A stretch of DNA of 64,000 bases from sequence record MN508614.1, one strand, 5' to 3'. The translations under genes were made by a program, and so were the position numbers. The stretch comes from Escherichia phage ES12. The notes under the pieces are model-generated. The model made no database searches and was not told where the DNA came from. It saw only the letters and a program-made list of their open reading frames with translations. Positions 10,053 to 11,787 of this stretch are shown one piece after another. Position 1 is the stretch's first letter. Every line of letters starts with the position of its first letter.

Positions 10053-10447
10053 CCTTCATCAACAACAGTATGCGTATTAGCATTTACGATTTGCCACCAA
10101 TCAAAGCGATTAGAATCCATCGGTTTGTTTTCATTTTCTTTGATAATGTCACGGAGTTCATCTTCAGAGAATGCTTTAGCGATTAAATCGGTATACCCAC
10201 CACGTGGATAATAATTATCACCTGCAAACAAAAGGAAATTTACCTTCCCGGAAGGAACATACGCTTCCTTAGGATACTTGTTTCCTGCGTGGTCAACCAC
10301 TTCAATATAACGGTAAGGAATATCGGTTCTTTCAACCCATTGCCATGCCGCTGCAGGGGAATCGAAAGCATCTACACCTAAACGATTATCTTCATCTTTA
10401 GACGGATTATTTTCGTAATCCGCATATACATAATATTCAACGTTCAT
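10049..10447 (-). CDS. Hypothetical protein
   Basis: 132-aa ORF; start overlaps upstream stop (TAATG). Confidence 0.55.
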   Translation of the reverse strand: MNVEYYVYADYENNPSKDEDNRLGVDAFDSPAAAWQWVERTDIPYRYIEVVDHAGNKYPKEAYVPSGKVNFLLFAGDNYYPRGGYTDLIAKAFSEDELRDIIKENENKPMDSNRFDWWQIVNANTHTVVDEG

Positions 10448-10632
10448 TATTCACCTTTAGAAATTTTATCCATAACAATAGCAATTAAACCAATTAAAAA
10501 TGCTACTACAAGTGAAAACACATTTTCTGCTGTAGTCAATAATCCACATATAAATCCAACAAACATTGAAAAACTAAAAGCGGAAGCAGAAATTGCAATA
10601 GCAACATTTCGAATTAATTCACAACGTTTCAT
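10447..10632 (-). CDS. Small hydrophobic membrane protein
   Basis: 61-aa ORF, GAGGAG RBS, own early promoter; two hydrophobic segments. Confidence 0.5.
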   Translation of the reverse strand: MKRCELIRNVAIAISASAFSFSMFVGFICGLLTTAENVFSLVVAFLIGLIAIVMDKISKGE

Positions 10633-10654
10633 TTTATTCTCCTCAGTAGTAGAT

Positions 10655-10692
10655 AGGGTAATAGTATCACTACCCTATCTAAAAGTAAACTT
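10655..10692 (-). promoter_or_regulatory. PeSL-like early promoter plus stem-loop module
   Basis: Minus strand GTTTAC-18 nt-TACTAT; inverted repeat gatagggta/taccctatc around conserved core aatagtatcac. Confidence 0.55.
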
Positions 10693-10924
10693 ATTTTTTA
10701 CGAAAAATTGATTTATTTTCTGCTGCCCATTTTTCAATAACTGCAGCAGGACCAGTAACAACAATTTTATCACCGTAATCTTCTGCGGCGAGTTGACCGA
10801 AATTATCTAATGCATCACGAAGAACTCCATGAGGCATTTCACCCATTTTATCTTTCTTGCCAGTGTAAATAAACTCAACTTTTACATCAGCAGTTTCAGC
10901 AATAAATTCTTGGTAAGTTTTCAT
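10691..10924 (-). CDS. Small internal-protein-like protein with exact CTS MKTYQEFIAE
   Basis: Start set at Met5 of the ORF-track ORF (GGAAA RBS); 77 aa; N-terminus MKTYQEFIAETADVK. Confidence 0.65.
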   Translation of the reverse strand: MKTYQEFIAETADVKVEFIYTGKKDKMGEMPHGVLRDALDNFGQLAAEDYGDKIVVTGPAAVIEKWAAENKSIFRKK

Positions 10925-10952
10925 TTTGATTTCCATTTGGTTTTGTTTTGAT

Positions 10953-10990
10953 AGGGTAATAGTATCACAACTAAAACCCTATGTAAACAA
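10953..10990 (-). promoter_or_regulatory. PeSL-like early promoter plus stem-loop module
   Basis: Minus strand GTTTAC-18 nt-TACTAT with inverted repeat atagggt/accctat; core aatagtatcac. Confidence 0.55.
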
Positions 10991-11000
10991 CTTTGTGAAA

Positions 11001-11258
11001 TTATTTTAAATCTTCTAATCGTTTCTTCATCTTAGAACCGTTCTTAGCGATTTCGCCTGCATCAGAGCATAATGCTAAAAGCGCTTTAACTTTAGTTTGG
11101 TCTCCTTTAAAAGATGAAGGATCAACAGCAGCAGCAAGTTCTTTAATACGAGAGAAAAGACGCTCAGCTTCAGCTAAAGCCATTCCAAGCTTTACTTCCA
11201 TACCATGAGAAGATTCAGTAATAGTAGTTTTTGTAGCAAACTCTTTGAAAGTTTTCAT
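11001..11258 (-). CDS. Small protein with CTS-like N-terminus MKTFKEFATK (I-T-E site at residues 13-15)
   Basis: 85-aa ORF, AGGAAA RBS, own early promoter. Confidence 0.55.
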   Translation of the reverse strand: MKTFKEFATKTTITESSHGMEVKLGMALAEAERLFSRIKELAAAVDPSSFKGDQTKVKALLALCSDAGEIAKNGSKMKKRLEDLK

Positions 11259-11282
11259 TTTTATTTTCCTAATTAATTTTGA

Positions 11283-11320
11283 TGAGGTAATAGTATCACT
11301 ACCTCATCAGTATGTAAACA
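11283..11320 (-). promoter_or_regulatory. PeSL-like early promoter plus stem-loop module
   Basis: Minus strand GTTTAC-18 nt-TACTAT; inverted repeat gatgaggta/tacctcatc; core aatagtatcac. Confidence 0.55.
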
Positions 11321-11331
11321 ACTTTGTGAAA

Positions 11332-11787
11332 TTATTTTAAATCATCTGCCCAATCGAGTTTAAGAGGCTCTTTATATTCACGATCTAATACGACCGGAAT
11401 TTGTACATCACCGCTAAATGATAAGGGCCCAACATTATAAGACAATGTTATATGCGGTGTGTAATCATCAAAATCATGTGTAGCACCTAGCGCCCGCGCA
11501 TACATGTGTCGACAGCGCAGATATTCAGAATCTAGTACAAGTACAAGAGTAGATCCATCTTGTGTTTTCCATACTTCTAAATGTCCAGAAGAAGCTACTT
11601 CAAAACTTCCGCTTGATGGAACATACGGAACATTTACTCTCGAATAACATATAGTCGAATGAATTTTTTCTCTAGGAACTGGATTAGGAACACGTAAAGA
11701 GCGCTGGAGTTCTTCCAGCGCATCAAGTGTTAATTCTGAAAACTTAGCTGCTACATAAAGACCCGTTGAAAAGTCTTTAAATTCCAT
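11332..11787 (-). CDS. 57B: gp57B-like protein
   Basis: 151-aa ORF in the T4 57B position, immediately downstream of 57A. Confidence 0.8.

Follow-up and report, generated by a model that had tools for sequence, protein, structure and literature searches.

The internal proteins (IPs) of T-even phages are small proteins that, as published for those of T4, are packaged by way of an N-terminal capsid targeting sequence (CTS) and injected into the host. T4 Ip1, Ip2, and Ip3 act against GmrSD type IV restriction enzymes, with a different enzyme inhibited by each protein (Silas et al. 2025). The IP loci are polymorphic with conserved leaders and flanks, and their elements are similar to promoter-early stem-loops (PeSLs) (Arbiol 2010; Comeau 2014). 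These IP-associated elements are T4 early promoters with AT-rich stem-loops and may drive the shuffling of IPs (Arbiol 2010; Comeau 2014); these later papers credit the repeated flanking element to Repoila 1994. A stem-loop overlapping the -10 box is among the commonest published PeSL positions, and the published promoter consensus for PST and T4 is TTTACW-N17-TAYWAT. In this study, we analyzed a stretch of 64,000 nucleotides (64 kb; the window) from Escherichia phage ES12 (sequence record MN508614.1), in which two small IP genes, ip5 and ip6, each lie behind a promoter/stem-loop module between 57B and trna.4. With considerable confidence, we assign this region to the IP locus at the ipI position of Tequatrovirus, in its common two-cassette allele ip5-ip6, with products that would be packaged, injected, and directed against restriction.

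The ip5-ip6 locus

All coordinates are positions in the window, and all genes of the locus are on the minus strand. The ip5 gene (11258..11001, 85 residues) and the ip6 gene (10924..10691, 77 residues) are located between 57B, which encodes Acb1, and the trna.4 homolog, i.e., within one of the two regions that define T-even IP loci (57B-trna.4 or the e/denV region). The gene order 1-57A-57B-[ip5-ip6]-trna.4-trna.3-trna.2 matches that of T4, in which ipI fills the 57B-trna.4 interval. Both proteins start with the IP-family pattern MKT[YF][QK]EF and carry an (I/L)xE site for the prohead protease gp21: Ip6 begins with MKTYQEFIAE, which is identical at 10 of 10 residues to the CTS of T4 IPII and IPIII, and Ip5 begins with MKTFKEFATKTTITE. 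Each of the two genes, as well as trna.4, is preceded by a module with an exact match to GTTTAC-N14-GTGATACTAT, in which GTTTAC and TACTAT are separated by an 18-nt spacer.

The initial annotation of this DNA had described three small genes, each behind such a module with the -10 inside an inverted repeat, two proteins with a CTS and a cleavage site, and the position of T4 ipI, and all of these features were confirmed. Its reading of a three-gene cassette region is retained for ip5 and ip6, which are variable IP cassettes. The third gene was considered as a third variable cassette and rejected; it is trna.4, which is conserved in T4, PST, and RB32. The region had also been placed between the tRNA/HNH block and 57B; the 57B flank is correct, but trna.3, trna.2, and a 171-residue open reading frame (ORF) intervene on the other side.

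The 1.2-kb region is 100% identical to that of Escherichia phage ES26 (MN508618.1, an unannotated record) and, when compared along its entire length, 98.3 to 98.5% identical to many genomes of Tequatrovirus. It is matched by 742 phage records, with coverage of at least 80% in 164. The two ORFs are annotated as ip5 and ip6 in phages JK08 and JB75 and as ipV and ipVI in Yersinia phage PST, and T6 has the same pair. In the alignment and profile searches that had been proposed as a check, each protein had a 100% identical database entry, named Ip5 or Ip6, and neither has a family in Pfam or NCBIfam. No significant sequence match was found in the PDB, and the PHROG families to which they belong are named as internal head or virion proteins. 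Ip5, Ip6, and the T4 IPs show no detectable similarity outside the propeptides.

Ip6 and McrBC

The start of Ip6 differs between databases, i.e., 10924 (77 residues, MKTYQEF) or 10936 (81 residues, MEIKMKTYQEF). The former is the likely start, because only that ATG has a GGA sequence resembling a Shine-Dalgarno (SD) sequence and because it puts the CTS at the N terminus. The predicted cut after IAE10 would leave a mature Ip6 of 67 residues that is near neutral (isoelectric point [pI] of 6.5) and for which a small α/β, ferredoxin-like fold is predicted. Proteins at least 95% identical to Ip6 are encoded in 141 phage records.

Ip6 is identical at 77 of 77 residues to bas37_0260 of Escherichia phage KarlGJung (Bas37; MZ501089.1, locus tags bas37_0256-0264), and the neighboring Ip5 is identical at 85 of 85 residues to bas37_0261. 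According to the HIDEN-SEQ preprint (bioRxiv 10.1101/2025.11.20.689424), deletion of bas37_0260 makes Bas37 specifically sensitive to McrBC of E. coli K-12. The two proteins had been presented as divergent candidate effectors with unknown targets; since Ip6 is identical to Bas37_0260, one of them already has a reported target, and the description still applies to Ip5. In T2- and T6-type phages, some of the hydroxymethylcytosine (hmC) remains unglucosylated, and hmC in this form is the substrate of McrBC. This incomplete glucosylation would explain the presence of an injected McrBC inhibitor in T6-like genomes and not in the fully glucosylated T4.

Ip5

The N terminus of Ip5 resembles only the long propeptide of T4 IPI (MKTFKEFTSTTTPVSTITE). 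Cleavage by gp21 is predicted after ITE15 and would yield a mature protein of 70 residues that is basic, with a pI of 9.2 and 13 lysine and arginine residues. The same rule, i.e., a cut after the first (I/L)xE, gives 76 residues when applied to T4 IPI, in agreement with the size published for IPI*. The ITE-S site is invariant in all Ip5 homologs found, including one variant in which a deletion of five residues leaves ITE at the canonical positions 8 to 10. The AlphaFold2 model of Ip5 is a two-helix hairpin (predicted local distance difference test score of 71) for which no informative structural match was obtained; the homolog searches gave 5 and 11 shallow clusters, so the alignments used for AlphaFold2 are thin. 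Ip5 is 100% identical to Ip5 of RB15 and at least 95% identical to proteins in 249 phage records. No functional report on Ip5 was found in the literature searched.

In a further 228 phage records, some of them from Mosigvirus, relatives of Ip5 at approximately 48% identity are encoded beside the lysozyme gene at the second IP locus; hence, the Ip5 family has changed places between the two loci. In HX01 (NC_018855.1, 1501-1769 of locus L130), a relative of Ip5 is apparently split into two short annotated coding sequences. The second IP locus is also present in the window, where an ORF of 157 residues (1204-1677, minus strand) starts with the CTS MKTYQEFITE↓AA and sits downstream of the lysozyme gene e (2163-2657) and denV (1687-2103). 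Its product belongs to Pfam DUF7412 (E value of 9e-96) and is weakly similar to T4 IPII (27% over 98 residues).

Promoter/stem-loop modules

The three exact copies of GTTTAC-N14-GTGATACTAT are located at 11319..11290, 10988..10959, and 10690..10661 on the minus strand, and no further exact copy exists in the 64-kb window. When up to two mismatches are allowed, 6 matches are found, versus 0.03 expected from shuffles. All three copies fit the published PST/T4 consensus for early promoters, are intergenic, and are followed by an SD sequence and an ATG; a sigma-70 scan also lists two of the three, with a TG extension. The modules are members of a family of 71-nt direct repeats, in which copies 2 and 3 are 86% identical. 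The repeat takes in the 3'-terminal codons of the preceding genes, with both 57B and the 85-residue ORF ending in …DLK-stop and the D1 copy reaching 11347.

Each module contains a stable stem-loop overlapping its promoter, and the -10 hexamer is split between the hairpin loop and the 3' arm. Module 3, upstream of ip5 (11331..11259), consists of an AT-rich upstream block (TTTCACAAAGTT), the -35 GTTTAC (11319..11314), an extended -10 (TGATACTAT, with TACTAT at 11295..11290), a 13-bp hairpin (11309..11280), and the leader AATTAGGAAAATAAAA before the ATG. The arms of its inverted repeat are 10/10 nt (11280-11289/11300-11309), and its RNA fold has an energy of -16.4 kcal/mol with a z score of -5.45, calculated against dinucleotide shuffles as for the other hairpins. 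From GTTTAC to the ATG, this module (core and leader) is identical to the T4 module upstream of ipI. Module 2, upstream of ip6 (11000..10925), has the same upstream block as module 3, with the -35 at 10988..10983 and the -10 at 10964..10959. Its hairpin (10990..10943) differs in being longer, with an imperfect 21-nt pair through which the -35 region is also paired to the leader CAAAACAA (RNA fold of -17.4 kcal/mol, z score of -4.74). Module 1, upstream of trna.4 (10690..10633), has the -35 at 10690..10685, the -10 at 10666..10661, a 14-bp hairpin (10681..10650), and a leader with GAGGAG; its inverted repeat has arms of 11/11 nt (10650-10660/10671-10681), and its RNA fold has an energy of -17.8 kcal/mol (z score of -5.62). 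No exact MotA box was found between 57B and trna.4, and promoters are not annotated in the T4 records.

The T4 endoribonuclease RegB cuts early mRNAs at the motif GGAG. The leader of trna.4 (10633-10650) has it within GAGGAG, and the leaders of ip5 (11259-11279, AGGAAAATAAAA) and ip6 (10925-10945, GGAAATCAAA) are free of GGAG. Judging from these leaders, the lack of the motif might keep the IP mRNAs until prohead assembly.

Mosaic modules and cassette exchange

Modules were compared among the window, T4, RB15, RB32, PST, T6, and several T4-like contigs from IMG/VR. The same two flanks, 57B upstream and trna.4 downstream, are conserved, and module 1 forms the downstream boundary of the array. 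Between them are found one cassette in T4 (ipI), two in the window, T6, PST, and Bas37, three in RB32, and four in RB15. The segment from -35 to -10 is of three kinds (…CTGATGAGGTA, …ATAGGGTTTTAGTT, and …TTTTAGATAGGGTA), as is the segment after the -10 (TACCTCATCAAAATTAATTAGGAA, TACCCTATCAAAACAAAAC, and TACCCTATCaACTACTGAGGAGAA). Of the nine pairings that these half-modules allow, seven were seen, and the joint is always at the invariant GTGATACTATTA. The module upstream of trna.4 in T4 is a hybrid of the 5' half of window module 2 and the 3' half of window module 1, which is what a module-to-module recombination deleting an ip6-type cassette would leave. Thus, the modules coincide with junctions of insertion, deletion, and replacement, and the mosaic modules of T4, RB15, and RB32, as read from their sequences, support recombination at the invariant -10 core. 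In the notes of the RB32 record, Ip9 and Ip7 are described as "flanked by 43 bp direct repeat", and for Ip5 it is stated that it "replaces ipI". The CTS-coding 5' ends form a second homology block (44 nt at 77%, repeat D3).

Hairpins at promoters of other genes

The GTTTAC-N14-GTGATACTAT class was found in 112 stretches of T4-like contigs from IMG/VR; a spacing control with N15 gave 9 irrelevant matches. We examined 90 distinct promoters of this class from these contigs, with 53 representatives, about a third of which fold with a z score below -2. The -10 region is inside a hairpin upstream of a non-IP gene in 14 of the 53, and well over ten unrelated stems bracket the same loop. The promoter-in-hairpin design is not specific to IP genes, and the differing stems around a common loop are, in sequence terms, covariation at the level of the whole stem. 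Hairpins of 13 to 15 bp at the -10 upstream of non-IP genes are seen, among others, at the IMG/VR loci L036, L043, L055, L097, L104, L115, and L119.

The mean fold of the 53 representatives is -9.4 kcal/mol for the sense strand versus -7.5 kcal/mol for the antisense strand (Wilcoxon test, p = 4e-5), and this advantage is weak evidence that would fit a role at the RNA level. The 3' arm directly follows the -10; therefore, RNA started at the promoter of the module itself probably does not contain the complete hairpin, which would be present in read-through RNA alone. In such RNA, it would attenuate or process the transcript or stabilize a 3' end, by which the cassettes would be insulated from one another; this is the weakest inference of the present analysis.

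Proposed mechanism

In the mechanism that we propose, each cassette is composed of a T4-type early promoter (GTTTAC and the extended -10 TGnTACTAT), a short leader with an SD sequence, and a small ORF that starts with a CTS. By analogy with T4 IPI, IPII, and IPIII, the CTS would take Ip5 and Ip6 into the prohead core, where gp21 would remove it by cutting after (I/L)xE (after ITE15 in Ip5 and IAE10 in Ip6). The mature proteins of approximately 7.5 kDa would then be packaged and injected with the DNA and would disable a host nuclease before phage genes are expressed. The module of approximately 70 nt, together with the conserved CTS-coding 5' end, would give each gene its own transcription start and would also provide short stretches of homology for the gain and loss of cassettes and their exchange between phages. 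We infer the packaging, gp21 cutting, and injection of Ip5 and Ip6 of ES12 from the T4 proteins and the early activity of the module promoters from their sequences.

Alternative explanations

Several observations weigh against this mechanism. With respect to the proteins, the model of Ip5, a basic helical hairpin, would be just as compatible with a core protein associated with DNA. The evidence for McrBC is from a preprint and, in its available sections, is genetic, i.e., a knockout phenotype rather than binding or inhibition (bioRxiv 10.1101/2025.11.20.689424). The rescue experiment with GmrSD that had been proposed for these proteins is already published for ip4 to ip10, and no reproducible inhibition of the GmrSD variants tested was seen (Silas et al. 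2025). Alternatively, the main role of Ip5, and possibly of Ip6, would be that of a structural or charge-neutralizing protein of the head core, in which case the variation would reflect relaxed constraint and not an arms race. The basic character of mature Ip5 (13 lysine and arginine residues in 70), its simple predicted fold, and the contacts of T4 IP lysines with packaged DNA are in line with this explanation, as is the negative GmrSD result for ip4 to ip10. On the other hand, the IPs with an assigned role (Ip1, Ip2, Ip3, and Bas37_0260, which is Ip6) counter type IV restriction in four of four cases, the locus adjoins Acb1, and whole cassettes are either present or absent, as is usual for accessory counterdefense genes. 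Mature Ip6 is near neutral and hence no counterion for DNA. We therefore regard a head-core role as unlikely, and Ip5 is most likely, by analogy, an injected inhibitor comparable to the other IPs. As a tentative extension that may well fail, Ip5 may inhibit a defense system outside McrBC and the GmrSD variants tested, and the -10 hairpin may insulate the cassettes in read-through RNA.

With respect to the modules, recombinant forms with mismatched halves have degraded hairpins, which indicates that the hairpin is of help but not strictly required. The stems are not followed by a U tract, and a terminator scan finds no intrinsic terminator in the locus. The difference between the sense and antisense folds is in part inherent to these promoters, because the conserved -10 sequence itself forms G·U pairs. 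The modules might be ordinary T4 early promoters that are alike through a strong consensus, with hairpins and repeats that have no role in exchange or RNA insulation. Such promoters are widespread, as seen from the 112 IMG/VR stretches, two thirds of the promoters of this class lack a significant hairpin, and a near copy, GTTTAC-N14-GTGATAGTAT, precedes denV at 2158..2129. However, the identity of the modules in the window goes beyond the consensus, covering 71 nt at 86% and reaching the terminal codons of the preceding genes as well as the leaders; half-modules occur in seven of nine combinations joined at the -10 core, and the number of cassettes varies between the same flanks. The z scores of the hairpins (-4.7 to -5.6) and the unrelated stems that bracket the same loop elsewhere also speak against this explanation, to which we give little credence.

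With respect to packaging, no exact late promoter (TATAAATA) was found between 57B and trna.4, and the visible promoters are of the early type, so that the supply of protein to late proheads is left unexplained by the sequence. This is a gap in the explanation and not counterevidence, because IPI is packaged in T4 even though its gene has this promoter core and leader as well. The early-type promoters would also suit CTS-like N termini that are mere inherited remnants on early cytoplasmic proteins, made after injection and left unpackaged, but this is highly improbable for Ip5 and Ip6, in which the CTS and cleavage site are conserved or invariant although the mature parts are unrelated to those of other IPs, the CTS of Ip6 is that of IPII and IPIII, and the T4 precedent of ipI applies.

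Neighboring genes

Upstream of the locus are gene 1 (12754..12029), encoding a deoxynucleoside monophosphate kinase, 57A (12029..11787), and 57B (11787..11332). The product of 57B is the anti-CBASS (cyclic oligonucleotide-based antiphage signaling system) nuclease Acb1 (Pfam PF23474, E value of 2.6e-60) and is encoded at the same position as T4 57B. The genes acb1, ip5, and ip6 adjoin one another at 10447-11787 and form a small counterdefense island, in which ip6 is assigned to McrBC via the identity with Bas37_0260.

Downstream, the trna.4 homolog (10632..10447) encodes a predicted membrane protein of 61 residues whose translation, by inspection, reads the same as that of T4 trna.4; the gene is annotated as tRNA.4 in PST and RB32. 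Having no CTS, the protein is not an IP; it belongs to PHROG 1692 (function unknown) and gave no family in Pfam or NCBIfam scans. It is followed by the homologs of trna.3 (10447..10049, 132 residues) and trna.2 (10043..9756, 95 residues), the extra ORF of 171 residues (9752..9237; PHROG 2290, function unknown), an HNH-like endonuclease ORF of 210 residues (9161..8529; Pfam HNH below the gathering cutoff), and nine tRNA genes (8522..7769) detected with ARAGORN. The HNH ORF and the 171-residue ORF, which lie between trna.2 and the tRNA cluster (8529-9752), look like an endonuclease-associated replacement. ARAGORN finds no tRNA-Gln among the nine tRNAs; JK08, JB75, PST, and T6 have tRNA-Gln there, right after tRNA-Leu.

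Comparison with known systems

The locus is real, and its biological reading in the initial annotation is essentially right, but it is already known; it was described in 1994, and work of 2010, 2014, and 2025 returned to it. The novelty that had been implied is lost with the 100% identity of Ip6 to a characterized protein, Bas37_0260, which is the kind of near-identity that the initial annotation had itself named as refuting, and with the earlier publication of the element. The locus is a textbook case of the swappable set of prepackaged, injected antirestriction proteins of T-even phages. Its practical value is for annotation, i.e., labeling ip5 and ip6 and tying ip6 to McrBC evasion; many related records call these proteins hypothetical or label Ip5 as "ipI", and 57B appears in several as "RNA ligase". 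Even if Ip5 were an inhibitor with a new target, or the hairpin an RNA insulator, this would still be no new kind of system.

Like PeSLs, the modules are intergenic composites that combine a stop codon and an AT-rich block with the two promoter boxes (-35 and -10), a stem-loop that overlaps the latter, an SD sequence, and an ATG, and they are likewise associated with insertions, deletions, and replacements between close relatives. They differ in that Arbiol et al. call the IP-associated elements analogs, not homologs, of the RB49 PeSLs, and in that terminator activity was shown for an RB49 PeSL alone, whereas the stems in the window have no U tract.

Similar to T4 IPI*, the injected inhibitor of GmrS/GmrD, Ip5 has the same gene position, promoter core, leader, and extended propeptide (MKTFKEF…ITE↓), and the mature proteins are 70 to 76 residues long. 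The mature parts, on the other hand, are unrelated and show no homology, the similarity being confined to the first 22 to 26 residues or so. Ip5 is predicted to be all helical, whereas IPI* has two β-sheets flanked by helices. Bas37 has the identical Ip6 and Ip5 at the same locus; the McrBC phenotype was shown in Bas37 and would extend to ES12 by sequence identity. Compared with the long-known IP genes of T-even phages, the ip5-ip6 pair, as found in T6, PST, JK08, and Bas37, has the same locus, N-terminal leader, untranslated flanks, and gene names, and nothing substantive differs.

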